Notes: a model not told the origin generated them from the letters alone. Numbered from the stretch's first letter, positions 30,783 through 58,675 are shown. The stretch is DNA of 64,000 bases from Thiotrichales bacterium (GCA_018658305.1 JABHVM010000011.1:3551-67550); one strand, 5' to 3'. Made by a program: numbers and translations.

Positions 30783-30809
30783 ACACATCAAGGTGTAAAA
30801 TAGATAAGT

Positions 30810-31523
30810 ATGAGAGATGCAAAACATATATTGGTAGTAGATGATGACCCTGAGATAAGATGGTTGTTGCGCGACTATCTAGAGAAAACTGGCTATCGCC
30901 TGACTATAGCAGCAGACGGGATAGAGATGTTTGCGGCACTTGATAGAGCTCCAGTGGATCTTATCGTGCTTGATCTTATGTTACCTGGAGATGATGGGTT
31001 AATTTTATTAAGAAAACTTCGTGTTAATTCAAATGTTCCAGTGGTGATGTTGACAGCAATGGGAGAGGAGAGTGATCGCATTCTTGGTTTAGAGATGGGG
31101 GCTGATGACTATATTTCTAAACCATTCTCTCCTCGTGAGCTATTAGCGCGTATTAAAAGTGTACTTCGTCGTACGGATTCACTTCCAGAGAGTAAAATTC
31201 AAGAAGATGTAACTGAGATTGTATTTGTAGGATGGGTGTTGAATCTCAGACAGCGACATCTGATTTCACCAGATAAAGTATTAATACCGTTGAGCGGAGG
31301 AGAGTTTAGGTTGTTGCGGGTCTTCTTAGAGCATGCTGGTAGAGTTCTTAACCGAGATCAACTGTTGGAATTCAGTCAGGGACGAGAAGCACAACCATTT
31401 GATCGCAGTATTGATGTGTTGGTGGGACGACTACGCAAACGGCTGCGAGAAGATCCAAAAAACCCACAAATCATCCATACTTTAAGAGGTGAGGGGTATC
31501 GTTTTGTTCCAGATATTACCTGA
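30810..31523 (+). CDS. OmpR-family response regulator
   Basis: Receiver domain with the Asp pocket (VVDDD...LDLMLPG) plus a winged-helix output domain. Confidence 0.85.
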   Translation: MRDAKHILVVDDDPEIRWLLRDYLEKTGYRLTIAADGIEMFAALDRAPVDLIVLDLMLPGDDGLILLRKLRVNSNVPVVMLTAMGEESDRILGLEMGADDYISKPFSPRELLARIKSVLRRTDSLPESKIQEDVTEIVFVGWVLNLRQRHLISPDKVLIPLSGGEFRLLRVFLEHAGRVLNRDQLLEFSQGREAQPFDRSIDVLVGRLRKRLREDPKNPQIIHTLRGEGYRFVPDIT

Positions 31524-32907
31524 ATCACTCTATGGTCGTCTTTTAGCAATTCTACTTATTGGGTTGATGGTTCCACAACTTCTTAGTGCGTTAGTTCACC
31601 TATATGATCGAGACACTTTAATCCATCAAACCATGGGGGCAGAGAGTGCGCAGAGAATTGGCTCGATTGTAGAGTTGCTCGATCCAATGGATAGTGTAGA
31701 ACGAGATAAGATGGTAACTGCACTTAATGGATTTCCGCTTGAACTGGAGTTAAATTCACAATATAGAAAAGAGAAGGAACCTCAATATAGAGATAGTTCT
31801 GAGACTAAAAAATATGAAGGTGAGAAGGTGTATCTACTTTTTAAAGAGTACCTTCAGCAGAACCTGCCATCAGGATATGAAGTGCATATTGAGGTCGTAG
31901 AGGCGATGCTATCAGTTGAACATAATAGTATGAGCTCTCCTCAGCAGATGGTGAAATCATTTCATGTACAAGTGCGTCTTAATGATGGGGTATGGGTGAA
32001 TTTCCACTACCACATCCCCAAAAAAATATTTGCTTGGCCTCTGCGTATGTTAGTGGCTCTACTTCTCTTAATGGTATCAGTTTTAATCCTAACATGGATT
32101 GCAGTGCGCTGGGTTACCCGCCCGATCTCGCTACTCTCAGATGCAGCAGAGTCGCTTGGTCGAGATATAGACCACCCTCCTCTAGCTATTGAAGGGCCAA
32201 AAGAGGTCAAAAAAGCAGTAGTGGCATTCAATACTATGCAGCAACGCCTTAATCGTTATATTGGAGACCGTAGTCGTATTCTATCTGCAGTATCTCATGA
32301 TCTGAAAACCCCCATCACTCACCTCCGCCTCCGAAGCGATCTTATTGAGGATGAGTCTCTGCGTAGTAGTATTGAGGCAGATCTTGATTATATGGAAGAG
32401 ATGGTACTATCTACGCTCGACTTTATGCGTGGAATAGAGAACTCAGAGCCGATGCAGCAGATAGATTTAGATGCACTGCTAGAGAGTTTACAAGATGATC
32501 TAGCTCCACTACAGATAAAGTTTGATATTGAAGGGCAGAGTACGCAGCCAGTTATAGGAAGAATTTCACAACTCAAACGATGTCTCACTAATCTGTTAGA
32601 GAATGGAGTGCTACATGGATCGGGAAGAGTCTGGGTAACCATAGAAGAGAGCAAGAGTAATCTACTTCTAAGTATAAATAGCGAGGGCGAAAAGATTCCA
32701 GCTGAGGAGTTGGAACGCCTATTCGAGCCATTTTACCGTATTGAAAAATCGAGAAGCAGGTTATCAGGCGGTACAGGTCTGGGGCTAAGTATAGCCAGAG
32801 ATATAGCCAGAGCTCACGGAGGAGAACTTATTCTGTATAATAATCCAGAGGGAGGAGTAACTGCAAAGCTTGAGCTACCTTGGTATGATCTACCACTTGT
32901 CTCTTGA
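31489..32907 (+). CDS. sensor histidine kinase (periplasmic sensor, HAMP, HisKA, HATPase)
   Basis: Two TM helices around a periplasmic domain of about 150 aa; H-box SHDLKTPITHL; G-boxes GTGLGLSI. The start is a GTG that overlaps the RR gene. Confidence 0.82.
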   Translation: MRGIVLFQILPESLYGRLLAILLIGLMVPQLLSALVHLYDRDTLIHQTMGAESAQRIGSIVELLDPMDSVERDKMVTALNGFPLELELNSQYRKEKEPQYRDSSETKKYEGEKVYLLFKEYLQQNLPSGYEVHIEVVEAMLSVEHNSMSSPQQMVKSFHVQVRLNDGVWVNFHYHIPKKIFAWPLRMLVALLLLMVSVLILTWIAVRWVTRPISLLSDAAESLGRDIDHPPLAIEGPKEVKKAVVAFNTMQQRLNRYIGDRSRILSAVSHDLKTPITHLRLRSDLIEDESLRSSIEADLDYMEEMVLSTLDFMRGIENSEPMQQIDLDALLESLQDDLAPLQIKFDIEGQSTQPVIGRISQLKRCLTNLLENGVLHGSGRVWVTIEESKSNLLLSINSEGEKIPAEELERLFEPFYRIEKSRSRLSGGTGLGLSIARDIARAHGGELILYNNPEGGVTAKLELPWYDLPLVS

Positions 32908-35758: not shown

Positions 35759-36151
35759 ATGAGTATGAGTTTTTTTGCTATCCTCTTGTTGTCACTCGTT
35801 CTCTCTGGCTGCGATATATTCGACCCAGAAAGTATTAGAGCGCGTAATTTTCTTCCACCTCCCACTTATCAGGGGAGTGTGGAGAGAGGGGAAGTCAATT
35901 ATAAAAATAACTGTGCACGCTGTCATGGCGTTGATATGGCTGGAACGGCAGAAGGTCCTCCGCTTATGAATAAAACTTATGGCTCTTCACACCATGCGGA
36001 TCTCTCGTTTTATCATGCAGTCAAAAATGGAGTTAAGCAGCACCACTGGAAATATGGAGATATGCCAATGTTGACTGGGATCAGCCCAGAAGAGGTGAGT
36101 GATATTGTTGCATTTGTTAGGTTTCAGCAGCAACTCAGAGGCATTAAGTAA
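35759..36151 (+). CDS. monoheme cytochrome c lipoprotein
   Basis: Lipobox LSGCD; CARCH heme site. Confidence 0.65.
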   Translation: MSMSFFAILLLSLVLSGCDIFDPESIRARNFLPPPTYQGSVERGEVNYKNNCARCHGVDMAGTAEGPPLMNKTYGSSHHADLSFYHAVKNGVKQHHWKYGDMPMLTGISPEEVSDIVAFVRFQQQLRGIK

Positions 36152-36257
36152 GTATGAAGGAGACTGATATGGTGGTAGAATTTCCACTATAATCGACTCA
36201 ATTTTAGCTGTAGTTGTAGTTTTAGTCAGCAATAAAAATATTTTAGGATGAAAAGAG

Positions 36258-36758
36258 ATGGATAAAAAAGTAGTTGTATCGATTGTTCTTATGTTGGCTG
36301 TTTTAGGTTTAGTAGTGATGCAAGCATCTCAACAACCTAATCAGCAGGAGAATCAAAAGATAAGCCAACAGACATACCAACAGACAACAGATAGTAATAT
36401 TAATAATGGCACGGTAGAGCGCTGGTATACTCAACAGCAAGTGGCACAAGGGGCAGATATTTTCAAGACTAACTGTGCAGCCTGTCACGGACCAGAAGCG
36501 GCATCTATCCCTAACTGGCGAGAGCCTGATGAGAGTGGTAACTATCCTCCTCCACCATTAGATGGATCGGCTCATGCTTGGCACCACTCCTTAGCACTTT
36601 TACAGAAGACAGTTCGAGAGGGCGGGGCTGCCGTTGGTGGGCAGATGCCACCCTTCAAAGATCTCCTATCGATAAAGGAGATTGATGCGGTTCTTGCTTG
36701 GGTTCAGACCCACTGGAATGATAAAGTTTATCAGATGTGGAGTGAGCGGAATGGCTAA
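36258..36758 (+). CDS. periplasmic cytochrome c (SAHAWHH-motif family)
   Basis: Signal peptide; CAACH; [10 protein letters not shown]; MPPF. Confidence 0.65.
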
Positions 36759-39015
36759 AGAGACGCGCCTCTCTATCTCTGGAATGATGTGCGCTGGTTG
36801 CCTCTCCTCCGTTGAGCAGGCGTTGCAGGGGGTTGAAGGGGTAGAGTCGGCAGCAGTTAATCTTGGTGAGAGAAGCGCAATTGTTGAGGGAGAAGCTTCT
36901 GTTGAAGCACAGATCGCTGCAGTAAAAGAGGCAGGGTTCGGGGCGGCAGAGTTGGTCACCCTTGCAGATGAGCAAGCAAAAGAGCAAGCGGAGGCACGCG
37001 AGTACCAAAAATTGTGGTGGCGCGTGATCTCTGCTGGTGGGGCTGGTCTCACGCTATTTGTGGCAAGTATGGGTGGGTTTCTTCCTAGCATAGAAAACGG
37101 GCAGCCTATCTGGCTTGCGATTAGCGCTATCACTCTGCTGATTCTCATCTTTGTTGGTGGGCACTTCTTCAGCGGAGCGTGGGTAACGCTTAAAAATCGG
37201 CGCGGCAATATGGATACCCTAGTCGCAATGGGTACAGGCACCGCTTGGCTCTACTCCACCATCATCGTTCTCTATCCTGATTTAGTTCCATCTTTGGCTC
37301 GTCACGCCTATTTTGAAGCGGCAATTATTATTGTCGCACTGGTCTCGCTCGGCTCTGCGTTGGAGAGTAGAGCTCGGAGCAAGACCTCTTCTGCGATAAA
37401 AGCGTTGATTGGGCTGCAACCTAAAACGGCTCGGGTGCTACGCAATGGCGAGGAGCTTGATCTTCCGCTAGAGGAGGTTGGGTTAGATGAGACGCTACGG
37501 GTTAGACCTGGTGAAAAAATCCCATTAGACGGAGTGGTGTTAGAGGGGAGCTCTTATGTTGATGAATCAATGCTGACGGGTGAACCGATACCAGTTGCCA
37601 AGGAAGATGGGGGGCAAGTTGTAGGTGGAACTATCAACGGCTCTGGAACTTTTATAATGCGCACAACCCATATCGGCAGAGAGACGGTGTTGGCGCAGAT
37701 TGTAGAGCTAGTGCGCAAGGCACAGTCGAGCAAGCCAGAGATCGGGCGCTTGGTTGATAAAATCGCCGCCATCTTTGTGCCGATTGTGATCACCATCGCT
37801 GCCGTAAGTTTTGCGCTCTGGCTCTGGTTAGGACCAGAGCCGCAATTCAGTTACGCGATGGTGGCAGCGATGACAGTATTGGTGATCGCCTGTCCTTGTG
37901 CGCTCGGGCTGGCAACCCCAATTTCGATTATGGTGGGTGTCGGGCGTGCCGCAGGGATGGGGATTCTGATTCGTAATGGTGAGGCGCTACAACAAGCCGA
38001 GAAGGTGACCACAGTTATGTTCGACAAGACTGGTACGATTACTGAGGGAAATCCTCAACTGGTTAAAATTGCTATTGAAGTGAAGAGTGGAGGAGTTAAA
38101 AATAGTGAGGATGATCTGTTGAGATTGGCGGCAGCATTAGAGATAGGGTCAGAGCATCCGCTAGCTACTGCAATTCTTAATGAAGCGAAGGTGCGTGGAA
38201 TTTCAATTGAGGCTGCAGCTAATTTTCAGAGTATCACTGGAGAGGGGATTGAAGGCGAGGTGGCAGGTAAAAAATTACATCTCGGTAACCGCACTCTTAT
38301 GGAGAGAGATAAAATTATCTCCTCTCATAGTAATAGTGAAGAGAGTGAGAATAGAGCTGAAGAGTGGGGCGCAGCAGGAATTACTCCCATCTATCTCGCC
38401 CAAGAGGGAGAGCTGTTGGGTATGTTAGGTATTGCAGACCCGATCAAGGCAGGGGCGGAAGAGGCGATTGCAAACCTAAAAGAGATAGGGGTGAATGTGG
38501 TAATGCTTACTGGAGACAACCAGAAAACTGCTGAGGCAGTCGCTACTCAGATCGGACTTGATAAAAACTCCGTTGTTGCAGATCTACTTCCAGCAGAGAA
38601 GATCAAACAGGTCGCTCAATTACAGCAGCAGGGGGAGGTGGTAGCAATGGTCGGAGACGGCATAAATGATGCACCTGCACTCGCTCAGGCGGATGTGGGG
38701 ATAGCGATCGGTACTGGTACCGATATAGCCATTGAATCTGCCGATATCGCCCTAATGCACGGCGCACTGCAGGGGGTAGTTGATGCAATTACCCTCTCCA
38801 GAGCAACGATGGAAAATATCAAACAGAACCTCTTCGGGGCTTTTATCTACAACACGCTCGGTATTCCTATTGCCGCTGGGGTACTCTTCCCTCTGTTTGG
38901 AGTGATGCTAACCCCTATTGTTGCAGCTGCCGCTATGAGTATGAGTTCAGTAACAGTAGTTACCAATGCGCTTAGATTACGAAGTGTTAGGTTGTCAAAA
39001 GGAAGTAGAAGCTGA
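36751..39015 (+). CDS. copA: copper-translocating P1B-type ATPase
   Basis: N-terminal HMA GMMCAGC; CPC in TM6; phosphorylation site DKTGT; GDGINDAP. The start is the ATG at 36751, which overlaps the upstream stop; the ORF track opens at 36682. Confidence 0.85.
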
Positions 39016-39018
39016 GGA

Positions 39019-39543
39019 TTAATCATCCCAGCGTCCCACGCCAGGTATACGGACATCATGCTCGTTGAAAGATCCATCTGCTGCATTTAGGTGACAGCTT
39101 CCGCAGTTACTAAGTGAGCCGATTTTTGGGTTGTCGAGAAAACGGCGTGGAATCTCATCGTGTTCTTTTACAAAAGGACGGCTCTCTGTAATACGCAGTG
39201 GAATCTCACTATCTCCTTTGCGCCAGAATTGATACCAACGATCACTGCTGCCGTACTGTTGTAGATAGGCGCTGAGCTCTTTCTGTTCTTGCGGTGCGAG
39301 CTCGGCGTTGTCTCCGAAGTGGTTATCGAGAGAGCGCATCATATTCCCCCAAGATATTTTTCCTAGCAGGCTCGGTGGGTAGGCGATATGACAACTTCCA
39401 CACTCTTCACGGTACTGATTGTATTCACTACTGCTGCGCATATAGGAGCGATTTCCCCATTCATCACTATCTGCTAGGGTTGGACTGCTTAATAGTGTGG
39501 TCGCAATCAATAAAGTTGCTGCTTTTCTCTGATTTTTTTTCAT
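39019..39543 (-). CDS. periplasmic diheme cytochrome c
   Basis: Signal peptide; CGSCHIAY and CGSCHLNA. Confidence 0.65.
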   Translation of the reverse strand: MKKNQRKAATLLIATTLLSSPTLADSDEWGNRSYMRSSSEYNQYREECGSCHIAYPPSLLGKISWGNMMRSLDNHFGDNAELAPQEQKELSAYLQQYGSSDRWYQFWRKGDSEIPLRITESRPFVKEHDEIPRRFLDNPKIGSLSNCGSCHLNAADGSFNEHDVRIPGVGRWDD

Positions 39544-39648
39544 CTCTTTAATCTCCTGTTTTAGGTACTTCTCTATCGGTTAATAAATTCAAGTATCTCT
39601 CTTTTTTACTGTTTGAATTTTGCATAGTAAATAGCGTACAGGGTGAAC

Positions 39649-39732
39649 CTTAAGAGGGACTTAAGATTAGAATAAATGTTAATGGTTATCTTAAGATTCA
39701 CTTAAGGTTTGGTGTTTAGACTCTCTCTTATG
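39649..39732 (+). promoter_or_regulatory. conserved upstream element: four CTTAAG half-sites in two 11-bp-phased pairs, then GTTTAGACT and the caspase start codon
   Basis: CTTAAG at 39649, 39660, 39690 and 39701. The last 45 bp are about 80% identical to 42485-42528 and 45548-45590. Confidence 0.55.
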
Positions 39733-41034
39733 GTTCGTTTTCTACTGACACTACTGACTATTTTTTCACTTTCGCTATCTCCCCTCTTGCTGGGAGAGAT
39801 GGTAAATGTCGTCTATGCTGATGGTGACGGAGGCGATGGGGGGGACGGTGGAGATGGAGATGGAGATGGGGATGATGGAGGAGATGATGGAGGAGACGAT
39901 GGCGGTGATGATAGCGGAAGTGATGGTGGCAACGATGGTGGAGGAGATGATGGTGATGGTAGTAGTAGTGGTTCCGATGATGGGGGCGGCGATGACTTTT
40001 TCAGCGAAGAGTTTGTAGAGTGGATGAGTGAGAGTCAGGGCGGTTCAGGGATCGCTTTTTACAGCGCAGAAGAGAATCTGGAGTGGGTCACTCCTGAAGC
40101 GGAGCAGGCACTGATTGCCTCACATTGGAACCACTCACCACGACAGATGTTTGCCACTAAACCAGCCACTCAACCATCGACTCAGAAAGTAGCGGTTGAG
40201 ATCACAAAATCTCCATTTCCACACGACACTCTAAATCTAACCTATGCCAGAACAGTTGAAAATAGTGAAGATGATATTGCCGTCATTATCGGCAATGCCA
40301 ACTATCAGCAGTTTGGAGCCAAAGTACCTGATGTGACTCCCGCTTACGCTGATGCAGAGGCGTTCACCCGTTATGTGCGTGAAGGGTTGGGAGTGCGAGA
40401 AGGGAATATTATCCACTTGAAAGATGCAACCCAAGCGCAGATGATGCGTCTCTTTGGTACCGAAAAACATCCAAAAGGACAACTCTATGATTGGGTCAAA
40501 CCGCAACAGTCAAGAGTGACACTCTATTTTTCAGGGCATGGGGCCCCTGGGGTTAAGGCGAAAGAGAGCAACTATCTGGTGCCTGCCGATGCAGATGGAG
40601 CTCGACTTGCCCTCAACGGTTATCCGGTTGAAGAGCTTTACCAAAATCTTTCCAAGCTTAACGCCCGTTCAGTAACGGTGGTACTGGAGGCGTGTTTCTC
40701 AGGGGTGAGTCAAGATAGTCAAGTAGTTACCCACGCCTCACCGATCTTTGCGCAGCGCAAGCCGACCACCATTCCCAAAGAGATTACCGTGATCTCAGCT
40801 GGAGGTAGTGACCAGATCGCCTCTTGGGAACAGGATCGTTCTAATGGACTCTTCACTAAATACTACCTCTATGCGATGAGTGGCAAGGCAGACCATCCCC
40901 CTTATGGAAATGGTGACGGACGGGTGAGCCGTGATGAACTGCAACGCTATCTCGATAAAACCCTAAGTTACTGGGCACGCCGCTACTACGGGCGAGAGCA
41001 GGTGGCGCAGATTCAAGAAGGAAAGAAGTTATGA
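39709..41034 (+). CDS. secreted caspase-like cysteine protease (peptidase C14 / orthocaspase) with an N-terminal acidic Gly/Asp repeat region
   Basis: Signal peptide; about 60 aa of (D-G-G/D-D-G) repeats; caspase His/Cys dyad context YFSGHGAPG and VVLEACFSG. The alternative start is the ATG at 39730. Confidence 0.75.
   Translation: MVFRLSLMVRFLLTLLTIFSLSLSPLLLGEMVNVVYADGDGGDGGDGGDGDGDGDDGGDDGGDDGGDDSGSDGGNDGGGDDGDGSSSGSDDGGGDDFFSEEFVEWMSESQGGSGIAFYSAEENLEWVTPEAEQALIASHWNHSPRQMFATKPATQPSTQKVAVEITKSPFPHDTLNLTYARTVENSEDDIAVIIGNANYQQFGAKVPDVTPAYADAEAFTRYVREGLGVREGNIIHLKDATQAQMMRLFGTEKHPKGQLYDWVKPQQSRVTLYFSGHGAPGVKAKESNYLVPADADGARLALNGYPVEELYQNLSKLNARSVTVVLEACFSGVSQDSQVVTHASPIFAQRKPTTIPKEITVISAGGSDQIASWEQDRSNGLFTKYYLYAMSGKADHPPYGNGDGRVSRDELQRYLDKTLSYWARRYYGREQVAQIQEGKKL
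39817..39996 (+). repeat. in-frame GAT-GGN trinucleotide/hexanucleotide tandem repeat tract encoding the acidic linker
   Basis: About 180 bp of (GATGGN)n units; a slipped-strand expansion or contraction candidate. Confidence 0.7.
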
Positions 41035-41972
41035 GAAAAATGGTGATGAGAATGCCCATGCTACTGCTCTCAATTTTTATCCTAAGCGGTTGCGTCTCAA
41101 CGCCACCAATGCCTGAAATGAAAAAAGGGTATCTCACTCAACCTGCAACCCTCCCCCAATATCGTGCGGGAGACACCTTCATATTTAGTGATGGGAGTGT
41201 AGAAAAAGTCATTGCTGTTAGAGGAGAGAAGGTTGATTGGGAATCACGGGGAGGCGCTTTTCGTTACACGACATATCGAAACTTTATCCTCCCTAAACAG
41301 CAGTGGGAGACAGAGACAAAAGAGGTGGTGGTTCAATACAGTGGTGAGCGAAATATTCTCTGGCCGCTTAAGAGTGGAGAGTCTGAATATTTTCCAACAA
41401 CTGTTGTTGTAAATGACAAAGTTAATTTTTCTAAAAAATCTTATCTGCAGAGCTGGCGCTGCCAGGTAGGAGGGATCTACAAGATTACATTGAAAGCGGG
41501 TATATTTGATGTGCAGAAAATTGAGTGTGATCGCAATACCTTGATGGGGCGCTGGATGCAGACCCGTAGTTGGTTCTACGCTCCTGCACTGGGGCACTAT
41601 GTGCTCCGTCTCGATGAGTACGCCCCTACCTCCTCTCGTCGTCATATTCAGCGTAATAAAGAGTTGGTCGCCTACATTCCCTCGGATCAACATATAGCTT
41701 ATGGTGAGGGCGTCTCACCTGAATCCCACTTTCAGCACTCATTGGAGAGTCTCCCCTCTGGTGAAAGCAGTGAATGGAGAGATGAGAGTGATCGCTATGC
41801 ACGAACCATCACCATGCTTCGCACCTTTCGTGCAGATGGAGGGAGATACTGTCGTGAGTATCGAATGGTGAGAAGAGATGATGGACGAATTCAAAGTTAT
41901 CTTGGAAAGTCCTGTCGTGGCGAAGATGGGCGCTGGCACATCGCCGTAGCAGCCCTGTCAACGCACACATGA
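41031..41972 (+). CDS. hypothetical lipoprotein translationally coupled (ATGA) to the caspase gene
   Basis: Lipobox ILSGC; 4-nt overlap; C-terminal Cys/Arg-rich repeats (RYCREY...KSCRGEDGRW). Confidence 0.5.
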   Translation: MRKMVMRMPMLLLSIFILSGCVSTPPMPEMKKGYLTQPATLPQYRAGDTFIFSDGSVEKVIAVRGEKVDWESRGGAFRYTTYRNFILPKQQWETETKEVVVQYSGERNILWPLKSGESEYFPTTVVVNDKVNFSKKSYLQSWRCQVGGIYKITLKAGIFDVQKIECDRNTLMGRWMQTRSWFYAPALGHYVLRLDEYAPTSSRRHIQRNKELVAYIPSDQHIAYGEGVSPESHFQHSLESLPSGESSEWRDESDRYARTITMLRTFRADGGRYCREYRMVRRDDGRIQSYLGKSCRGEDGRWHIAVAALSTHT

Positions 41973-42007
41973 GGGGCGTGCGTTAAGCCTCCCTCTCTAT
42001 GCTTTTA

Positions 42008-42226
42008 TTAGCCTGCTCTGGATTCTCTAACTGCATCTAATATATCCTGAGTAGTTGCTCTGGTTTTAATGCCAGACACATCAAAGGGTGATTTTTCTTT
42101 TTTTGTTTTTGGAACTATCGAAAAAATAGAGCCGTCTCTTCGCCGAATTTCAACCTTTTCATTTTGAGCAGTGTTTAATAATTCGGACAGATTTTGCCGA
42201 GCTTCTGAATAAGTGAATACTTTCAT
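42008..42226 (-). CDS. Phd/YefM-family antitoxin homolog (orphan, with no adjacent toxin)
   Basis: The N-terminus MKVFTYSEARQNLSELL matches the YefM signature; no RelE/YoeB-like ORF lies on either side. Confidence 0.5.
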   Translation of the reverse strand: MKVFTYSEARQNLSELLNTAQNEKVEIRRRDGSIFSIVPKTKKEKSPFDVSGIKTRATTQDILDAVRESRAG

Positions 42227-42484
42227 GCTTCTACTCCACAACTTCGATTTTAAGATCATATGCGACTTGTTTCATTCTTTTATCCAGAGTTATAAGCGGA
42301 CATGAGAACGGTGTTTGTCAAGGTAGTTGTCTGTTTTATTCATGCTGCTTTCAATAAAACAAGCTCTTCAGCACTGTACTTTTATTTTCTACTTAGATGT
42401 AGGGCAGATAGAGATTGATGACAAACCGATGTTGGTTTGCAACCTATAGCACTAACGGCTAAAGAGCGAAAAGGAGGTAAGCGC

Positions 42485-42528
42485 CTTAAGGTTCTCTTAA
42501 GGTTGAGCGTTTAGACTTTATCATTATG
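42485..42528 (+). promoter_or_regulatory. second copy of the CTTAAG direct-repeat element, immediately upstream of and including the start codon of the 42526 gene
   Basis: CTTAAGGTTCT-CTTAAGGTTGAGCGTTTAGACTTTATCATTATG. Confidence 0.55.
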
Positions 42529-43398
42529 ATGCGTACATTACTCAATCTGTCTGTTGATCCTCTTGACTCTCTTATTATTTGGGGGCTTGCTTTGGTCTTG
42601 ATGAGCAGTGCAGAGGCGGTGATAACGGTTGAATCAGGCGCTTACATCTTCACCGCAGAGATGAGTGCCGAAGAGGGGTGTGGTCAAGCAGTTGAGCGGA
42701 TAAAGTTAGAGAATATAGCGGAGCAGTGTGGTGCACATCTCTCTGGTGGCAAGTTAAGGGCGCTGGGTGATGGATATGACCTTCTTGATCAACTCTATTT
42801 TGAGTCAACTGCTGGACATCTGACCCAGTTCAAAATAAAGAAAAAAGAGGTGATACTGATTAGCACTGGATCAGAAGCCCCCCTCTTTCGTTGCAGTGTA
42901 GAGGCGGCGTTAGAGGTGAGTTGCAATCAAGGAGAGAGGAATCCTTACTTTGCACCGCTCTTTACGGAACAGATCTCCCTTAATCAGCTCTCTTTCAGAG
43001 AGGGGGACGAAATGAAGATTTTCATTGATGTGCCGCAACCGATGAGTATAACGGTTCTTCAACTGCTCCCATATTTAGAGAGCGGTGAACAGGTTTGGCG
43101 AATCTTTCCAAACTTATACCAGCCAGAGGGGTGGGTGGAGAAGGCGGAGCAGTTATCCATTCCAAATCAAGAGGGTGAATATCAGTTAATTGCCAAGCTT
43201 CCTATCGGCAAAAATCGTGTAGTTGAGGAGCTGGTGGTGATTGCAATTGATGAGAAAGGAGATAAAGATGAAAAAATTAAGTTCCCAGATCAGATGAGCG
43301 TGGAGCAGTTTCATCAACTGCTCGCTGAGATTCCACTCAATCAACGCAGAGAAAAATTTATCCCTTATGAAATCATTAAAGAGAGGTCTGTCCAATGA
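42526..43398 (+). CDS. hypothetical secreted protein
   Basis: Signal peptide; 4-nt overlap with the downstream lipoprotein gene. Confidence 0.45.
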   Translation: MMRTLLNLSVDPLDSLIIWGLALVLMSSAEAVITVESGAYIFTAEMSAEEGCGQAVERIKLENIAEQCGAHLSGGKLRALGDGYDLLDQLYFESTAGHLTQFKIKKKEVILISTGSEAPLFRCSVEAALEVSCNQGERNPYFAPLFTEQISLNQLSFREGDEMKIFIDVPQPMSITVLQLLPYLESGEQVWRIFPNLYQPEGWVEKAEQLSIPNQEGEYQLIAKLPIGKNRVVEELVVIAIDEKGDKDEKIKFPDQMSVEQFHQLLAEIPLNQRREKFIPYEIIKERSVQ

Positions 43399-44795
43399 AG
43401 AGCGTTATTCCTATTAGAGGTATCACTGTTGCCATGCTCGCACTGTTAGCAATCAGCGGCTGTTCGACTAGATATGTTGACCTGGGTGAAGGAGAGACTC
43501 CTTCCTCCAGTGCACTCTCTACCGAGGTGTTGTTTGAAGTGCACGATGCGTTCTATAACCCCACCCCACTTTGTGTAGCAGTGCTTCCACTGCAGGGGGA
43601 TGCAGATACTCTAAGACGAAGCCAAGTGCGCCGCACACTCTATGCTCATCTATCTCCACGAGGTTTTCGTGATATTGAGATCGCACGAGTGGACTATCTT
43701 ATTCAGAACAATGGGCTTGATGTTGAGCAGGTCGAGGATAGGGCAGCGTTAGGGCAGCTTCTAAACTGTGATGCATTTTTGATGGGAGAGGTGAGTGGCG
43801 GCTCATCTTTCTACGGAGTCTACTCCAAAGTGGAGGCGGCAGCCAAGTTACAGATGGTGAGAGCGGTTGATGGGGAACTATTATGGGAGTCTCAACACCA
43901 CGCCACTCAGCAGGATGGGGGGCTTCCGTTCTCACCGATTGGAATTGCTGCGGGTCTCTTCGATGCAGCAAGAAATGTTGAGAATGAACAGATCTTGAGG
44001 GTGATGGATGACCTCGCTCGACGAATGATGAGCACTATACCAGATGTGATGGTCAACTATAGCGATGATGAGGCTCTTAACCATTTTACCTTAGAAACAG
44101 AAGATCGCTGGAAGGGTGATCTTGATCAATATCTCGCTTCTAGTTCTGGGGCTGCTAGAGAGAGTAAACTGCGTAGACTCCTTGCAGAGCAGTCCTTAAC
44201 GACCTCTCAACAGGAGGAGGTCTATCAGAGGTTGACTACTGCTAGCGGTAAGGCGAGAGACTATCGAGCGTGGGGTCGTAATCGATTGAAACAAGGCTAC
44301 TATGAGGGGGCGTTGGAACAGTTTGAACGGGCGATTGAGATTAAAGAAAGTGATAGTGAGGCATGGTTTCTGAAAGGTCGAGTCCTAACCAAACTCAATC
44401 AGCTTGAGCAAGCGGATAGCAGTTTTGTCAAGGCGATTGCCCACAATCCAGATCGTGATGATTACTATGCGGCACTCGGTTACATTAATTCACGGAGAGG
44501 CGATATGGCACGGGCAAGAGCCGCCTATCAGATGGCGATTAAATATAATCCAGAGAGCGGCTTTGCTTGGTACAACCTTGCAGTGAGTGACTATAACGAG
44601 GGTAACTACCGAGATGCTACCGAGCAGTTTTTCAATGCTGGAAGCTTCTATCTCAAGCAGGGGCGAGTTGATCGCGTGGAACAGGTGATTCTAGATCTAA
44701 AGGATCTCAATCAGAAGAGAGATGGAAGCCGCACCGTACTGAAGTATATAGCGCGTCTGGAGAGCGATCTTGAGGTGTGGGTTGATAGTAAATAA
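43395..44795 (+). CDS. lipoprotein with an N-terminal DUF799/GNA1162-like (LpoB/CsgG-fold-like) domain and C-terminal TPR repeats
   Basis: Lipobox ISGCS; the VAVLPL...DAFLMGEV pattern; three to four TPR units near the C-terminus. Confidence 0.5.
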   Translation: MKSVIPIRGITVAMLALLAISGCSTRYVDLGEGETPSSSALSTEVLFEVHDAFYNPTPLCVAVLPLQGDADTLRRSQVRRTLYAHLSPRGFRDIEIARVDYLIQNNGLDVEQVEDRAALGQLLNCDAFLMGEVSGGSSFYGVYSKVEAAAKLQMVRAVDGELLWESQHHATQQDGGLPFSPIGIAAGLFDAARNVENEQILRVMDDLARRMMSTIPDVMVNYSDDEALNHFTLETEDRWKGDLDQYLASSSGAARESKLRRLLAEQSLTTSQQEEVYQRLTTASGKARDYRAWGRNRLKQGYYEGALEQFERAIEIKESDSEAWFLKGRVLTKLNQLEQADSSFVKAIAHNPDRDDYYAALGYINSRRGDMARARAAYQMAIKYNPESGFAWYNLAVSDYNEGNYRDATEQFFNAGSFYLKQGRVDRVEQVILDLKDLNQKRDGSRTVLKYIARLESDLEVWVDSK

Positions 44796-44895
44796 GTAGC
44801 ACTATCTCCCTTGCTAAGAGAGAACAGGGAGGTATGTAGACTCTATTAATAGGCATTAAGTTTTTGATATTTTTTAATTGATTAGGAGAAGTAAG

Positions 44896-45537
44896 ATGAA
44901 GATAGATGATAGAGAGCATAATTTAGTCCGTAACGCAGTCACCGCAGTTTTATTAAGTAGTGTACTGGTAGGATGCTCCTCCATCCCTGAAGTGGGTACC
45001 CCAGCATTTAGCCAGTATAAAAAAGAGCAGCGCGAAGAGCAACGGGTCGAGGTGATGGAGGAGATGCCAGACTGGTTTATGGAGCCTCCAGTCGGAGATG
45101 ACTATCTCTATGTCGCCGCTACTGCCATCTCTCCCGACCTGCAGATGTCAATAGACAAAGCGGTGATGGATGGTAAAACTAATCTCGCTGATCGATTGAA
45201 TAGCTTGATGAGCGGAAAACTTAAACGCTATGTAGAGGAGAGCGGTAATGTAGAGAATATAGAATTTGTACAGCAGATGGAACGGATTAGCCAATCCCTC
45301 TTTACCGATGTCAACACCTCTGGTTACCGAGTAACTGAGAAGAAGTTGATCAAAGTGCAGAAGGGCTACCGCGCCTTTGTATTGATCGAATACCCGCTAG
45401 GTAATGCTAATTATGTACTAGTGGAAGGGGTTAAGAAAAACCAGAAAGCACATGCCAAACTTAGAGCAAGTAAAGCATTTGCTGCATTGGAAGATGAAAT
45501 TGAAGCCGCTAGAGGCGTAACCAAAAACTCTAAATAA
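44896..45537 (+). CDS. lipoprotein, tentatively LPP20/FlgP-like
   Basis: SD AGGAG then ATG at 44896; lipobox LVGCSS. The family call is tentative. Confidence 0.4.
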   Translation: MKIDDREHNLVRNAVTAVLLSSVLVGCSSIPEVGTPAFSQYKKEQREEQRVEVMEEMPDWFMEPPVGDDYLYVAATAISPDLQMSIDKAVMDGKTNLADRLNSLMSGKLKRYVEESGNVENIEFVQQMERISQSLFTDVNTSGYRVTEKKLIKVQKGYRAFVLIEYPLGNANYVLVEGVKKNQKAHAKLRASKAFAALEDEIEAARGVTKNSK

Positions 45538-45547
45538 TTACCCACTC

Positions 45548-45590
45548 TTTAAGACTCCCTTAAGGTTGGAGTATTACTCTATCCGTTATG
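45548..45590 (+). promoter_or_regulatory. third copy of the CTTAAG direct-repeat element, ending in an ATG that opens only a 17-codon ORF, about 150 bp upstream of the RR/HK operon
   Basis: TTTAAGACTCC-CTTAAGGTTGGAGTATTACTCTATCCGTTATG. Confidence 0.5.
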
Positions 45591-45740
45591 AATTTACAGA
45601 TAATAGAAGAGAGCGGGGCAGGGCGAATTCAACTCTGATAAAGTTACGGCAATGAATAGTGAATTTAGAGTTAGTATGGATTGTCTAGTCGATAGTGCAC
45701 TGCGCAAGCAAAACACAGCTGCAAAACTGTTTATCCGAAA

Positions 45741-46406
45741 ATGAGAATTTTATTAATAGAGGATGATCCACTACTCGGTGATGCTACTGAGGCAGGGTTG
45801 AGCCATGATGGTTACACAGTCGAATGGATGCACAATGGAGATCACGGCGACTCTGCGCTCAGAAATGAGAGCTTTGATGGGGTGGTGCTAGATCTTGGGC
45901 TACCTGGTAAGAGCGGGTTGGATATTCTACAGGCAATGCGTGGACGAAACGATACAACCCCAGCGCTGATTCTAACCGCTAGAGATTCAATAGAAGATCG
46001 AATCAAAGGGTTAGATAGTGGTGCTGATGATTATCTCATTAAACCGTTTGATTTAGATGAGTTGAGTGCGCGTCTAAGAGCGTTAATTCGGCGTGCAGCT
46101 GGACGGAGCTCTCCACTGATTGAGATTGCCACAGTTGTGCTTGATCCCGCCACCCATCTGGTTACTTTAAATAATGAAACGGTGAATCTCTCTCAAAGAG
46201 AGTTCTCACTACTTCAACTCTTAATGGAGGCAGCTCCCAGGGTGCTCTCACGCAGCTATCTGGAGGAGCATCTATACAGCTGGGAGAGTGATGTTGGGAG
46301 TAATGTACTAGAGGTGCATATCCACAATCTACGCAAAAAACTGGGAAAAACTTTTATCCATACGATCCGTGGGGTTGGTTATAGGGTTGAAGAGGAGAGC
46401 GAATGA
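45741..46406 (+). CDS. OmpR-family response regulator (QseB/CusR-like)
   Basis: Receiver domain (LLIEDD...LDLGLPG) plus a winged-helix domain. Confidence 0.85.
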   Translation: MRILLIEDDPLLGDATEAGLSHDGYTVEWMHNGDHGDSALRNESFDGVVLDLGLPGKSGLDILQAMRGRNDTTPALILTARDSIEDRIKGLDSGADDYLIKPFDLDELSARLRALIRRAAGRSSPLIEIATVVLDPATHLVTLNNETVNLSQREFSLLQLLMEAAPRVLSRSYLEEHLYSWESDVGSNVLEVHIHNLRKKLGKTFIHTIRGVGYRVEEESE

Positions 46407-47731
46407 ACTCTATCCGTAATCGCTTACTCTTGCTATTACTCGGTGTATTTACCTCTGTTTGGGTGGTGATGATGGGTTATATCTGGCAAAACACAGAACA
46501 CGAAATTGAAGAAGTTTTTGATGCACAGTTGGCTCAAGCATCACTGGTGCTATTGGATTTGACGCAGCATGAAATTACAGAGATGGATCTAGACGATTTC
46601 CGTTCGGATCTATTTGGCGCAGAACCTGTGCATGAATATGAGAAGAAAGTAGCATTTCAAGTTTGGCGTGGTGATAAGTTGTTGCTGCGCTCCAATAGTG
46701 CGCCCGCTACTCCTATGAGCAGAGTGGCAGGTTATAGTAGCGGAGAGATGGGGGGTGAGCGTTGGCGTTTTTTGCATCGAGTTGATACGACAGGTGTGTT
46801 GATCGCGATTGTGGGCGAACAGTACGAAATGCGCAATGAGTTAGAGGAGAAGATTATACTGCAGCTCTTCTGGCCCATTACCATAGCACTGCCACTGCTT
46901 GCATTGCTAATGACACTTGGAATTACTCGAGGGCTCCATCCGCTCAAGAGTCTTGCTGCTGAAGTGGCATCCCGTTCACCGACTCAGCTTGAAGAGATTA
47001 CCGCCAAACAGGTTCCACAGGAAGTCTCCCCACTCATTGATAGCATTAATACTCTATTAAAAAGAGTGGCGCAGACGATTGAGGCAGAGCACCGCTTTAC
47101 TGCGGATGCTTCCCACGAGCTGCGTACTCCACTCGCTGCAATTAAGACACAAGCACAGGTTGCAAAGCGGACAGAAGGAGAGGTCAGTGATAGCGCTTTA
47201 GATAAGGTGGTTGAGGGGGTAGATCGAACCTCACACTTAGTGGAGCAGCTCCTTACTTTGACACGCTTAGATCCTAGTGTGGTACAGCGTTGTTTTGAGG
47301 AGGTTGATCTAACAGTTATTTCAGAACGAGTGATGGCAGAGCTGGCGCCAACTGCGTTGGTTAAAAATATTGAGCTCACAATGGTTGGGCAGCGTGGAGA
47401 AGTAGTTAATGGTTCAGCTCCACTGCTGCAGATACTATTAAGAAATCTGATTGAGAATGGTATCAACTACACCCACTTTGGTGGAAAAGTAATCGTTACA
47501 GTTAACACAGAGGGGGAGGAAATAGTATTAAAAGTTAGTGATAATGGCTTGGGTATTCCAGAGGATATTCGACAGCGCGTTTTTGACCGTTTCTATCGGA
47601 TAGAGGGGAGTAGTGTGCCAGGTTCAGGGCTAGGTCTCTCTATCGTAAAGAGAGTTGTTGATATTCACGCTGGTACCGTTGAAATAGAAGGAGAGCAACC
47701 TCACGGGACAAGAGTAGTTATTGAAATTTAA
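46403..47731 (+). CDS. sensor histidine kinase (QseC/CusS-like, periplasmic sensor)
   Basis: Two TM helices, H-box SHELRTPLAAI, HATPase G-boxes, and a 4-nt overlap with the RR gene. Confidence 0.85.
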   Translation: MNSIRNRLLLLLLGVFTSVWVVMMGYIWQNTEHEIEEVFDAQLAQASLVLLDLTQHEITEMDLDDFRSDLFGAEPVHEYEKKVAFQVWRGDKLLLRSNSAPATPMSRVAGYSSGEMGGERWRFLHRVDTTGVLIAIVGEQYEMRNELEEKIILQLFWPITIALPLLALLMTLGITRGLHPLKSLAAEVASRSPTQLEEITAKQVPQEVSPLIDSINTLLKRVAQTIEAEHRFTADASHELRTPLAAIKTQAQVAKRTEGEVSDSALDKVVEGVDRTSHLVEQLLTLTRLDPSVVQRCFEEVDLTVISERVMAELAPTALVKNIELTMVGQRGEVVNGSAPLLQILLRNLIENGINYTHFGGKVIVTVNTEGEEIVLKVSDNGLGIPEDIRQRVFDRFYRIEGSSVPGSGLGLSIVKRVVDIHAGTVEIEGEQPHGTRVVIEI

Positions 47732-47732
47732 C

Positions 47733-49181
47733 TCAAGCTAACTCTTGTTTGTTTGCTCGATAGGGGAGTGTGATTTCAATCTTCAATCCCTTGCCGACAC
47801 CTTGGCTATCTGTATTGATCTCGCCGCCTAGACTGTGAATGAAGTTAGAGGCTGAGTGAAGTCCGTAGCCGCTCCCTTTCTGCTTGGTGGTAAAGCCGAC
47901 ATAGAACATCTTTTTAAGATTTTCAGCCGAAGCTCCACAGCCGTTATCTTCCACAACTATCATAAACTCTGTTTTGCTAACATCTTTGGCAGTAAGTTTA
48001 ATCTTCCCCTGTTTTATAGTGCCTCTCTCCATCTCTTCAAGGATAGCTTCAAGGCTATTTTTAAGTAGATTGAGCAGCATTTGGATTAGCGGATTGCGTG
48101 GGAGGTAGAGGCTGGAACTCTTTAATTCATCATGGTACTCAAATAGAACCTTGCTTTTATTGAAACGATCTTTTATTAGATTGACAGTATCATCTACCAT
48201 TGCATCTAAATTGAATTCAGTAGCATTAATAATAGGGCGTGCTGCACTACGCTGAATAGATATAATTTCTCCAATATGAGCGATACCATTTTGCATTCTC
48301 TCCAGCTCATCTCTGTTTATACCGCTGTTACCTCTTGCTTGCGCAAGCACCCCTTTGGCACCGTTTAGAAATTTAACCATCTCTGCGATCAAGGGGGCGC
48401 GCTCAACTTGACTCGCCTCAATTTTTTCAGCGTATCGTTCGAGGATTATCTCCAGTTTTGCTAGTCGTTCAAACTTATTGCGTAGTGAAAGTATTTGTCC
48501 ACTCATACCGGTAATGACATTGCCGATATTGTGAAGAACTGATGCCCCCATCTCGGCAATGCCAGCTTGGAATGCAGTGTACTGCTCCTGCTTCTCTGCC
48601 CGCTGTTGCGCTTTCTTAGCCTCTACTTCACTACTAATATCTATGATAGTTGCATTGAGTGTTTCATTCTCATCAACCTCCATCCGCACCAATCTTACAA
48701 TAGCTGGGAATGTATCACCATTGAGGCGTTGATGTATCCACTCAAATTCGTGATCTCCCTCAATTAAAGCATGCTCAATATGGTACTTGGCGAGATCGGC
48801 AGAAGTTTCTCCATTAGGCTGATATTCAGGCGAAAGTTGTGATGGGGTAGCGTTAATAAGATCCTCCTCACTACTGCATCCAAACATTTTAATCGCAGCA
48901 GGGTTGCCTCTTTTAAAACCCCACATCGGTGGAGCAATCGTCATAATTGCATTATAAGAGGTCTCAAATAGGGAGCGAAATTGATGCTCCTGTTCAGCTA
49001 GTTTTTGCTGCGCCTCTTGAAGTGTGAGGATCTCACCTTTCCTCTCCTTTAACTCCTCTGCCAAACTCTCCATTTGAGCGTGGATAAAAGAGCCAGATTG
49101 ATTTTTCTCATTTTGTAGTTTACGCAGTTGAGCTTTAAGTATCTTATTGCTCTGTTGTAGCGACTCAAAAGTGACAGGCAT
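47733..49181 (-). CDS. soluble PAS-domain histidine kinase with an atypical H-box (SVLHNIGN)
   Basis: No TM helix; coiled-coil, PAS, then the phosphoacceptor region and HATPase (DNGCGA...GSGYGL). Confidence 0.72.
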   Translation of the reverse strand: MPVTFESLQQSNKILKAQLRKLQNEKNQSGSFIHAQMESLAEELKERKGEILTLQEAQQKLAEQEHQFRSLFETSYNAIMTIAPPMWGFKRGNPAAIKMFGCSSEEDLINATPSQLSPEYQPNGETSADLAKYHIEHALIEGDHEFEWIHQRLNGDTFPAIVRLVRMEVDENETLNATIIDISSEVEAKKAQQRAEKQEQYTAFQAGIAEMGASVLHNIGNVITGMSGQILSLRNKFERLAKLEIILERYAEKIEASQVERAPLIAEMVKFLNGAKGVLAQARGNSGINRDELERMQNGIAHIGEIISIQRSAARPIINATEFNLDAMVDDTVNLIKDRFNKSKVLFEYHDELKSSSLYLPRNPLIQMLLNLLKNSLEAILEEMERGTIKQGKIKLTAKDVSKTEFMIVVEDNGCGASAENLKKMFYVGFTTKQKGSGYGLHSASNFIHSLGGEINTDSQGVGKGLKIEITLPYRANKQELA

Positions 49182-49190
49182 TCAATTTTC

Positions 49191-50330
49191 CTATTTAGTA
49201 AAGCCAATGGCAACCATGGTCTGATTGATGTGGAGTCCGTTAAGCTGCTCTCCATAAGTATCAAATCCGATAACATTAGGGGCGTAGTGCTGGAGTAGAG
49301 TACCCCACGCTTGACGCTCTTCCGCACTTTCAGTCTCAGCTTTACAGAGAATACAGCTGAATAGTATAACTAACTCAATCTCTCCTAATTTATGTTGAAG
49401 AGTGTCGAATGATTTTTTTAACTCTTGGAGCGGCTCCTGGCGTTCTCCTTTCTCTAGCAGTAACCCTTGATCGACTGCGCAGTAAAAGGTGAGTGAACCA
49501 TCCTTCTCAACTTTTTGAATAGAGCGTACATAGATCTCGCCTTGTTCACGATAGATGAGTGGGGATTTTCCAAAGTCAAAGGTATTTATCTCCTCAATAC
49601 CAACCCCCGTCATCTCTGCATAGACCTCTGCTGCGGGGCGACCGTCTAGAGTTTTAATATTACGCTTCTCAGGATTGCTATCTGTGACTATTACATCCTC
49701 TCCTGCTGGCTGGTAGTGCTGATTTTTTATGATCGCAAAGGGGTGTGCAGACTCTCCTAATATTACTACAGCCGCCTCACTATAAGCTTTCCCATTAGCG
49801 ATCTGAGTAGTTTGTTTGAACTGTAGATCATCACCAGCAGAGCCACCAAGTAGCGGAACCCCTTGTAGATAGGTTGTAACCGCTGCAGTGATCTTCTCCT
49901 CCTGCATCGCCAATCCATCTTGCAGAATGAGTGCAAAATGTTTTTCTGAGTTGAGTTCGTCTCGCTCTAAGTTATGTAGAGAAAGAAGCTCCTCCACTAG
50001 TTCTCCACCATCTGCAGGTTCGAAGTTACGCACATCTTCAAGTACGGCTGCTTGCCAGTTAATTGTAGGTGAGTGGATTCCCATGATAACAAGGCTCCCC
50101 TCATAACGCTCTGCATCAAGAAACTCTCCTGCAGTGGAGCAACCCGCCATCGTCACCTCTGGAAAATGGTGGTGTAGTGTAGCGGCAACTTCGTTGGAAT
50201 TTTGTTGAGTAGAGTAGTAGACTAGAATAAAGTTTAGCTGTTGACGCTCAGCAGTGCTCCAGTTACTAATAGCCTCCTCGACCGCCTCCGCACCATCTGA
50301 TTTGTGTGATACACCTTTGATAATCTTCAT
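49191..50330 (-). CDS. FIST-domain sensory protein (FIST N plus FIST C)
   Basis: FIST-like sequence with the LDGRPAAEVY motif, sitting upstream of the soluble HK. Confidence 0.65.
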   Translation of the reverse strand: MKIIKGVSHKSDGAEAVEEAISNWSTAERQQLNFILVYYSTQQNSNEVAATLHHHFPEVTMAGCSTAGEFLDAERYEGSLVIMGIHSPTINWQAAVLEDVRNFEPADGGELVEELLSLHNLERDELNSEKHFALILQDGLAMQEEKITAAVTTYLQGVPLLGGSAGDDLQFKQTTQIANGKAYSEAAVVILGESAHPFAIIKNQHYQPAGEDVIVTDSNPEKRNIKTLDGRPAAEVYAEMTGVGIEEINTFDFGKSPLIYREQGEIYVRSIQKVEKDGSLTFYCAVDQGLLLEKGERQEPLQELKKSFDTLQHKLGEIELVILFSCILCKAETESAEERQAWGTLLQHYAPNVIGFDTYGEQLNGLHINQTMVAIGFTK

Positions 50331-52595: not shown

Positions 52596-53165
52596 ATGGA
52601 TCAGCCGCTAGAGTCAACTCTAGCAAAAAGTCTGCTAATGGCTGAAACAGCACCTCAAACCCAAGATAGCTTTCTACGCGTCAGCGCAGATAAAGTTGGT
52701 CGCCTGATGGATATGGTCGGCGAGCTGGGGCTAGTCTCCGCTGAAATTCTTCATCGTCCCGATATAGAGGAGCTTGAACTAGATGGGTTTGAAAACTTCG
52801 CACATCGCCTAGAGTTGCTGATTAGAGAGATCCAAGATGAATCCTCTGGACTGCGCTTAGTGCCAGTGGGTACTGTATTTAAACGAATGCAACGCGTGGT
52901 GCGAGACTTACAGCGCCAGACTGGCAAAAAAATAGAGCTACTCCTGGAGGGGGAAGAGACCGAAGTTGATAAAGTGGTAGTGGATAGTCTCTATGATCCA
53001 CTCGTCCATATTGTACGCAACTCCGCAGATCACGGTTTAGAGTCCCCAGAGATTCGTAAAGAGAGTGGCAAGGGCGAGACTGGACGAATAACTCTGTGCG
53101 CACTGCAACAGGGAGGGGAGGTTCAGATCACCATTCAGGATAATGGGCAGGGGCTAAATAATTAG
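52596..53165 (+). pseudogene. cheA: cheA remnant: P3 dimerisation and the proximal part of the P4 kinase domain only, truncated inside the G1 box
   Basis: Strong pattern match to the CheA P3/P4 region (VRDLQRQTGKKIELLLEGEETEVDKVVVDSLYDPLVHIVRNSADHG...ITIQDNGQGLN). P1, P2 and P5 are absent. The stop codon lies inside repeat copy 3. Confidence 0.7.
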
Positions 53166-57310: not shown

Positions 57311-57401
57311 TTGCTAAGGTAGAAGATGAGTGGTCTGAGTTTTAAGGAGATATTAAGCTCTTAAACTATTAAATAAAAGAGTAATTAAACAGGAGAGACG
57401 T

Positions 57402-58610: not shown

Positions 58611-58675
58611 TTTTCAGTTCCTAAATATGATTCAAGTAAGTAACGGCTAAATATAAGTATGAAGCACTCTTAATT

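Follow-up and report, generated by a model that had tools for sequence, protein, structure and literature searches.

The 64,000-nucleotide stretch analyzed here (the window; Thiotrichales bacterium, GCA_018658305.1, JABHVM010000011.1:3551-67550) carries, between about 39.0 and 47.7 kb, a dihaem cytochrome c (DHC) gene on the minus strand and, divergent from it, genes for a secreted caspase, lipoproteins and a DUF4384 secreted protein, followed by a two-component system made up of an OmpR-family response regulator and a QseC-like sensor kinase. A 17-bp direct repeat of the form CTTAAG-N5-CTTAAG (the box) occurs in this region in four copies, which very probably form the core of an activator-dependent sigma-70 promoter and together would define a local regulon of the adjacent regulator. 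The original prediction, made before any comparison with other genomes, had described three copies of the element upstream of genes, and these are present as described at 39690, 42485 and 45548. Genes and promoter features are given below in window coordinates, L numbers being labels of loci from other genomes.

39019..39543, minus strand: DHC gene (Pfam PF09626, E 1e-35)
39548..39625, minus strand: 25-codon open reading frame (ORF), MQNSNSKKERYLNLLTDREVPKTGD and a stop codon, its ATG 7 nt past the -10 element
39633..39638, minus strand: TACGCT, -10 element of the cytochrome c promoter, 10 nt past box A
39649..39665, minus strand: box A, CTTAAGTCCCTCTTAAG, putative regulator site in the promoter of the divergent DHC gene (matrix score 27.1 bits, minus orientation)
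39690..39706, plus strand: box B, CTTAAGATTCACTTAAG, caspase promoter (matrix score 34.8 bits)
39717..39722, plus strand: TAGACT, -10 element of the caspase promoter, 10 nt past box B
39730..41034, plus strand: secreted caspase (Peptidase_C14) with signal peptide, its ATG 7 nt past the -10 element
41031..41972, plus strand: lipoprotein gene 2, lipobox LSGC (L078 orthologue 69% identical)
41973..42484, no strand: lineage-specific spacer splitting the operon (no gap at this place in L078, L148 or L150)
42485..42501, plus strand: box C, CTTAAGGTTCTCTTAAG, DUF4384 promoter (matrix score 36.8 bits)
42512..42517, plus strand: TAGACT, -10 element of the DUF4384 promoter, 10 nt past box C
42526-43398, plus strand: DUF4384 secreted protein, its ATG 8 nt past the -10 element
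43395-44795, plus strand: GNA1162-like/TPR lipoprotein
44896-45537, plus strand: lipoprotein gene 5
45548..45564, plus strand: box D, TTTAAGACTCCCTTAAG, regulator-kinase promoter, putative autoregulation (matrix score 25.4 bits)
45575..45580, plus strand: TACTCT, -10 element of the regulator-kinase promoter, 10 nt past box D
45588..45638, plus strand: 16-codon ORF, MNLQIIEESGAGRIQL and a stop codon, its ATG 7 nt past the -10 element
45741..46406, plus strand: OmpR-family response regulator, PmrA/QseB subfamily
46403..47731, plus strand: QseC-like sensor kinase (2CSK_N, HisKA, HATPase_c)

With shuffled sequence as the control, the window has four sites that match CTTAAG-N5-CTTAAG with no more than one mismatch (39649, 39690, 42485 and 45548) and no others, against a mean of 0.35 per shuffle and no case of four or more boxes among 100 shuffles. 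All four consist of two YTTAAK hexamers arranged as direct repeats with a 5-bp spacer and an 11-bp phase; three are perfect in both half-sites and one reads TTTAAG-N5-CTTAAG. The composite TTAAG-N5-CTTAAG-N10-TAnnnT-N7/8-ATG was likewise found four times in the window and in none of 100 shuffles. Since CTTAAG is its own reverse complement, the strand of a box must be read from its flanks. An additional upstream pair of half-sites had been assigned to the element of the first locus; the pair exists, but instead of being part of that element it belongs to a fourth promoter on the minus strand, directed toward the DHC gene, which reads CTTAAGTCCCTCTTAAG-gttcaccctg-TACGCT-atttact-ATG, a layout equal to that of the other three. 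The regulon would therefore start at about 39.0 kb and include the DHC gene; the co-regulated module that had been placed at 39.7 to 47.7 kb is supported by the comparison with relatives described below, with its start shifted accordingly.

The three plus-strand copies are 82% (first and second), 75% (first and third) and 73% (second and third) identical through the ATG, for which the earlier figure of about 80% was slightly generous, and 29, 30 and 29 bp separate the second half-site from the ATG, just as had been stated. Two copies supply the start codons of secreted-protein genes, as predicted, the caspase and DUF4384 products both having signal peptides; the third lies, also as predicted, ahead of the regulator-kinase operon, its ATG opening a 16-codon ORF before those genes. 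When the window copies are aligned with sites from relatives, conservation is limited to the half-sites, a TT after the second half-site, TAnnnT and ATG, with flanks that bear no relation to one another, a pattern that fits a functional promoter rather than a dispersed repeat. The gap between box and TAnnnT is without exception exactly 10 nt, in the window (four sites) as in relatives (14 sites), and this invariance (18/18 oriented sites) is the geometry of activator-dependent OmpR/PhoB-family promoters. The window promoters have no recognizable -35 hexamer, its place being taken by the box; 17 bp upstream of the caspase -10 element, for instance, the sequence is AGATTC, which is no -35 match.

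Several other signals were considered and set aside. CTTAAG hexamers number 13 in the window (about 19 expected), with seven of the 13 inside the four boxes, and an origin of the hexamer as an AflII-like restriction site was dismissed given this count and the absence of any restriction-modification sign. The box-like sequence TTTAAGGAGATATTAAG at 57341-57357, upstream of the FIST gene at 57402, was judged a chance occurrence with two mismatches; a -10 hexamer was not found there at 10 nt, and the site falls outside the 14 best matrix matches. A generic promoter and terminator scan was uninformative, returning fewer sites than expected from shuffles (7 against 12.5), and its sole sigma-70-like match near 42526 lies across the start codon at chance level. 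An Rfam search of 39-46 kb produced no credible RNA family match.

The comparison covered nine further neighborhoods, retrieved around homologues of the caspase cluster or related regulator-kinase pairs (L001/8, L002-4, L005-7, L009/10, L011, L013/14, L148/9, L150 and L151), the related regulators being 56-72% identical at the protein level. In all nine there are boxes, one or two per neighborhood, and past each of them TAnnnT begins after a gap of exactly 10 nt, on the strand that faces the adjoining operon. Three operon types recur, namely cytochrome b-DUF1924(SHP)-DHC-regulator-kinase, T_hemolysin-AMP ligase-Haem_oxygenas_2-SDR-TPR (with or without the regulator-kinase pair) and caspase-lipoprotein 2-DUF4384-TPR-lipoprotein 5, and in L148/149 all three stand side by side. 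A weight matrix built from 14 sites of relatives, none of them taken from the window, returned 36.8, 34.8, 27.1 and 25.4 bits at exactly the four window boxes, against 10.5 bits at the next best window site and a maximum of 18.9 over 50 shuffles. A blind scan of a genome collection with the pattern CTTAAG-N5-CTTAAGGTT-N7-TAnnnT matched at least 120 stretches. Among the matches listed, most come from Gammaproteobacteria, including many Legionella, Legionellales, Coxiellaceae and Alteromonas genomes; these listed matches also include cytochrome b-SHP-DHC-regulator-kinase loci in metagenome-assembled genomes of Piscirickettsiaceae (L054), Gallionella (L084 and L103) and Burkholderiales (L046), and T_hemolysin loci (L027, L075, L112 and L116). 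The source genome itself is not among the matches listed.

The box was found at none of 11 metagenome loci carrying distant caspase homologues (42-56% identity), which marks the caspase module as a recent, lineage-specific recruit to an older regulon. As reconstructed from these comparisons, the conserved core regulon is the cytochrome b-SHP-DHC operon and the T_hemolysin cluster, and the caspase/lipoprotein module is a lineage-specific addition. SHP operons have been linked with a QseC-like sensor, 'SK2', and a response regulator (Meyer, Kyndt and Cusanovich, 2010, PMC2909971), and the passages of that paper available here describe no regulatory DNA site for the system. In the relatives L005, L013, L054, L148 and L151 the association with SK2 is matched, the regulator-kinase pair forming the tail of the cytochrome b-SHP(DUF1924)-DHC operon. 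The window differs in keeping the DHC gene only, which is transcribed away from the caspase gene and separated from the regulator gene by 6 kb; its regulator-kinase pair appears to have moved behind the caspase module, with the caspase/lipoprotein operon added to the regulon.

The nearest solved structures to the window regulator are those of BasR/PmrA (8jo2 and 4s04; E about 3e-51), and the top NCBIfam models are QseB and PmrA for the regulator and QseC for the kinase. The regulator scores under both equivalog cut-offs (QseB, NF007663, 248 against 345 bits; PmrA, NF007928, 237 against 330 bits), so that it represents a distinct branch of the subfamily and is not to be named PmrA or QseB; the kinase reaches 276 bits for QseC, where the cut-off is 475. 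In strict QseC a periplasmic acidic motif, EYRDD, is needed for signal recognition (PMC5053249); the window kinase lacks this motif in its periplasmic part, where the only similar stretch is HEYEKK. The recognition helix of the regulator, SNVLEVHIHNLRKK, and that of Klebsiella PmrA, TNTLEVHIHNLREK, are identical over LEVHIHNLR, including N188, H193 and H195, which have been proposed as the base-reading residues of the Klebsiella protein (PMC3973317), and the helix is kept in all related regulators examined. The adjacent two-component system had been predicted as the cognate one, and its subfamily, its helix, the presence of the box beside related pairs and the recovery of the window sites by the relatives-only matrix all agree with this. 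A second OmpR-type regulator (30810) was considered as box binder and rejected, its helix reading DVLVGRLRKRL instead. It belongs to another two-component system, OmpR/EnvZ-like and located behind a cytochrome c gene (29910-32907, plus strand), with a recognition helix unlike the PmrA type.

Direct repeats at one helical turn had been taken as the site architecture of OmpR-family regulators, and they match the published PmrA/QseB box. The PmrA box of Salmonella is CTTAAG, 5 bp, xTTAAT and that of Klebsiella CTTAAT-N5-CCTAAG (PMC3973317), while Aggregatibacter QseB binds CTTAA-N6-CTTAA flanking the -35 and the E. coli qseBC promoter carries the same repeat, suggested to be a PmrA-bound site, PmrA and QseB cross-regulating in this host and sharing one repeat (PMC5053249). 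Judged by its sequence, the window element is this known PmrA/QseB-type box and no new element, used by what would be a distinct, SHP-operon-associated branch of regulators. It is like the PmrA/BasR box of Salmonella, Klebsiella and E. coli in its direct-repeat CTTAAG/xTTAAT hexamers and 5-bp spacer, in head-to-tail binding by an OmpR-family dimer (known there, predicted here), in the LEVHIHNLR helix and in the putative autoregulation of the regulator's own operon. It differs in its window targets, which are the cytochrome gene and the caspase/lipoprotein module (in relatives, the T_hemolysin cluster) and not lipopolysaccharide-modification genes, in the perfect palindromic CTTAAG of both half-sites, in promoters that appear leaderless and in a regulator under the PmrA cut-off. 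The QseB site of A. actinomycetemcomitans ygiW-qseBC is alike in its repeat, 11-bp phase and place over the -35, and the positive autoregulation of its regulator-kinase genes (PMC5053249) would have a counterpart in the window. Differences from QseB/QseC are that the window pair falls under both cut-offs, has HEYEKK for EYRDD and lacks the ygiW gene. PmrA regulons of Legionella and Coxiella control type IV secretion effectors, and their PmrA element, reportedly described by Zusman and colleagues in 2007, is said to consist of tandem cTTAATatT repeats at a fixed distance upstream of the -10 element; going by this consensus, it is like the window element in its 11-bp-phased TTAA-core repeat and fixed -10 distance, in keeping with the many Legionella, Legionellales and Coxiellaceae genomes among the matches listed. 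Leaderless starts are not known to be a feature of those regulons, and the boxes sampled among the matches listed do not show them.

In the mechanism proposed here, a phosphorylated dimer of the response regulator (45741-46406), with the QseC-like kinase (46403-47731) as its partner, would bind the box head-to-tail and recruit RNA polymerase, the box lying over the -35 position as in PhoB- or PmrA-type activation. Four units would be co-induced: the DHC gene on the minus strand; the caspase gene and lipoprotein gene 2; the DUF4384, TPR lipoprotein and lipoprotein 5 genes; and the regulator and kinase genes, for which box D would provide positive autoregulation. Some points weigh against this reading. 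Binding by the adjacent regulator, activation as opposed to repression, and the transcription starts are all things that we infer from sequence, and the sub-cut-off QseB/PmrA scores weaken the assignment, the presumed box specificity being drawn from the recognition helix and from co-occurrence. A paralogous regulator or further boxes may exist outside the window, and the regulator ATG (45741), which lies 100 nt past the 16-codon ORF, has no obvious Shine-Dalgarno sequence.

That genuine PmrA/QseB-type boxes are occupied by a paralogous regulator from elsewhere in the genome, alone or through cross-talk, is nonetheless unlikely. PmrA and QseB do share a repeat and cross-regulate in E. coli (PMC5053249), and the view taken here is limited to 64 kb of the source genome, but the box travels with the regulator-kinase pair across the related lineages compared and three operon contexts, one box stands directly upstream of the pair itself and the recognition helix is unrelated in the one further OmpR-type regulator that the window encodes. 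Were the adjacent regulator to bind but repress, it would occlude the -35 of otherwise constitutive promoters, and the box does overlap the expected contact position of sigma region 4, from which OmpR-family regulators are able to repress; there is, however, no promoter with a recognizable -35 to occlude (AGATTC at the caspase promoter), the fixed 10-bp gap at 18/18 oriented sites is that of PhoB- and PmrA-type activation, and QseB and PmrA activate from an equal arrangement (PMC5053249), leaving repression a slim chance. Least credible is that the copies have nothing to do with regulation and stem from a dispersed repeat or a local duplication of recent date, for instance a small mobile element. 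The first two copies do share 82% identity, and copy 2 sits behind a lineage-specific insertion, yet conservation is restricted to half-sites, TAnnnT and ATG amid unrelated flanks, an equal architecture recurs beside related pairs whose regulators are just 56-72% identical, and no Rfam family was matched. Activation of the four promoters by the adjacent regulator is the preferred account of the region.

Whether the resulting transcripts carry leaders is a separate matter. Each of the four window promoters has an ATG 7-8 nt past its -10 element, which, with 5' ends placed by the usual sigma-70 distance from -10 to start, leaves no space for a Shine-Dalgarno sequence; the transcripts are therefore probably leaderless or nearly so. 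The original prediction had noted no Shine-Dalgarno sequence at these starts, and indeed none was found at the box-linked starts, though many other window genes have a clear one. In relatives, an ATG follows 7-8 nt past the -10 element on both strands in L078 and L151, and at 7 nt (L001 T_hemolysin), 8 nt (L148 and L054 cytochrome b) or 11 nt (L148 caspase). This spacing of 7-11 nt is retained over five related lineages in which the bases between have diverged; the ATGs of L148 and L151 cytochrome b and of L001 T_hemolysin are the starts independently called in the source annotations, and in alignments of the window caspase and DUF4384 proteins the start coincides with the first Met of the orthologues. 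Two observations count against leaderless starts. Two of the four window ATGs open ORFs of just 16 and 25 codons and may be deletion scars instead of functional starts; and in the sampled boxes of other genomes an ATG follows the -10 element in 9 of 122 (five offsets, among the matches listed), a chance level that makes the feature clade-specific. It is thus conceivable, although doubtful, that the promoters depend on the regulator without being leaderless, an ATG near the -10 element having been inherited from a duplication or deletion; the first codons of the short ORFs, which resemble T_hemolysin and cytochrome b N-termini, would suit such scars. Set against this, the gap is held by the caspase and cytochrome b starts in particular, no alternative in-frame start or Shine-Dalgarno sequence was found, signal peptides start at these ATGs, and the other sigma-70-like match near 42526, which overlaps the start codon, is a chance one.

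A further extension concerns relatives in which one perfect box is flanked on both strands by N10-TAnnnT with an ATG 7-11 nt on (L078 7060-7076, L148 3961-3977 and L151 4588-4604), and in which this single box sits between divergent cytochrome b and caspase operons. With each half-site equal to its own reverse complement, one 17-bp box can be read in either orientation, and in these three loci a single box appears to drive both the cytochrome b-SHP-DHC-regulator-kinase and the caspase-lipoprotein operon, the head-to-tail regulator dimer presumably being seated on it in alternative orientations. The window would then show this arrangement resolved into two boxes, separated by 41 bp. An opposed second -10 element is not general, being present at 6 of 121 sampled boxes among the matches listed, the same as at neighboring offsets and hence attributable to chance. 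That the clade's whole regulon is leaderless, and served by a single 17-bp box with palindromic half-sites usable in either orientation, is put forward tentatively, as a possibility somewhat short of an even chance.

The arrangement in the window seems to have arisen through both insertion and loss. In L078, L148 and L150 lipoprotein gene 2 overlaps the DUF4384 gene with no promoter between them, whereas the window has a spacer of about 550 bp at this place followed by box C, which suggests that box C follows a lineage-specific insertion that split the caspase operon. The spacer contains an ORF of 72 aa on the minus strand (42008-42226; MKVFTYSEARQNLSELL...) with weak similarity to Phd/YefM antitoxins (E 6e-4, under the cut-off), and the signal peptide of the window DUF4384 protein has a 14-residue insertion relative to its orthologues. 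Cytochrome b, SHP and the T_hemolysin cluster were probably lost from the window. The 25-codon ORF after box A has a polar start like the cytochrome b N-termini of relatives and may be the deletion scar of a leaderless cytochrome b gene, and the 16-codon ORF after box D, which starts MNLQII (compare T_hemolysin MNLHVV and MNLMVT), may be a T_hemolysin-like scar. As the likeness is confined to the first few codons, a deletion scar stays a suggestion; translated BLAST of the short ORFs and leaders against T_hemolysin, TPR, cytochrome b and SHP gave nothing significant except the real DHC gene. The latter is 48% identical to the DHC gene of L148 and has a Shine-Dalgarno sequence of its own (GGAG).

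Some features of the wider surroundings are recorded here. A gene for a copper-type P1B ATPase (HMA domain) and two cytochrome c genes occupy 35759-39015 on the plus strand and end 3 bp before the tail of the DHC gene; these neighbors, like the cytochrome targets of the regulon, suggest that the kinase may respond to a metal or redox cue. The caspase has a long Gly/Asp-rich tract of GDGGD repeats after its signal peptide (about 39820-40000, plus strand), which is kept in the L078, L148 and L151 orthologues. Behind the caspase module of L150 (5146-8753; the same in L078, 176-1555) lie a HAMP-HD protein gene and one for a hybrid histidine kinase instead of the PmrA-type regulator, and next in this lineage comes a T_hemolysin operon with its own box. 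A regulator-kinase pair in L009/L010 (12144-15486) precedes feoA-feoB-FTR1 iron-uptake genes; in the window, feoB lies about 13 kb downstream of the pair (60671-62806), where no box was found. A gene pair for a FIST-domain protein and a HATPase_c kinase occurs twice in opposite orientations about 7 kb apart (47733-50330, minus strand, and 57402-60109, plus strand), the minus-strand kinase having additional PAS domains. A candidate truncated kinase pseudogene is the short ORF at 52596-53165 (plus strand), which has a CheA-type dimerization domain but no more than the beginning of a HATPase domain.

None of these results alters the textbook view of OmpR/PhoB-family activation. What they provide is a motif and a target list, both testable, for QseC-like two-component systems located beside SHP/dihaem-cytochrome operons, and, through the recurrent start codon directly past the -10 element, a naturally occurring group of mRNAs from a gammaproteobacterium that are candidates for lacking a leader. 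Should the reading of the single shared boxes hold, one direct-repeat site would serve two divergent promoters. The region also illustrates how such a regulon may change, through growth, in that the box seems to have gained a secreted caspase/lipoprotein module as a further target, and through repair, in that an operon split by an insertion would have regained its expression via a second copy of the promoter, while deletions seem to leave scars consisting of a promoter and the first codons of a gene.

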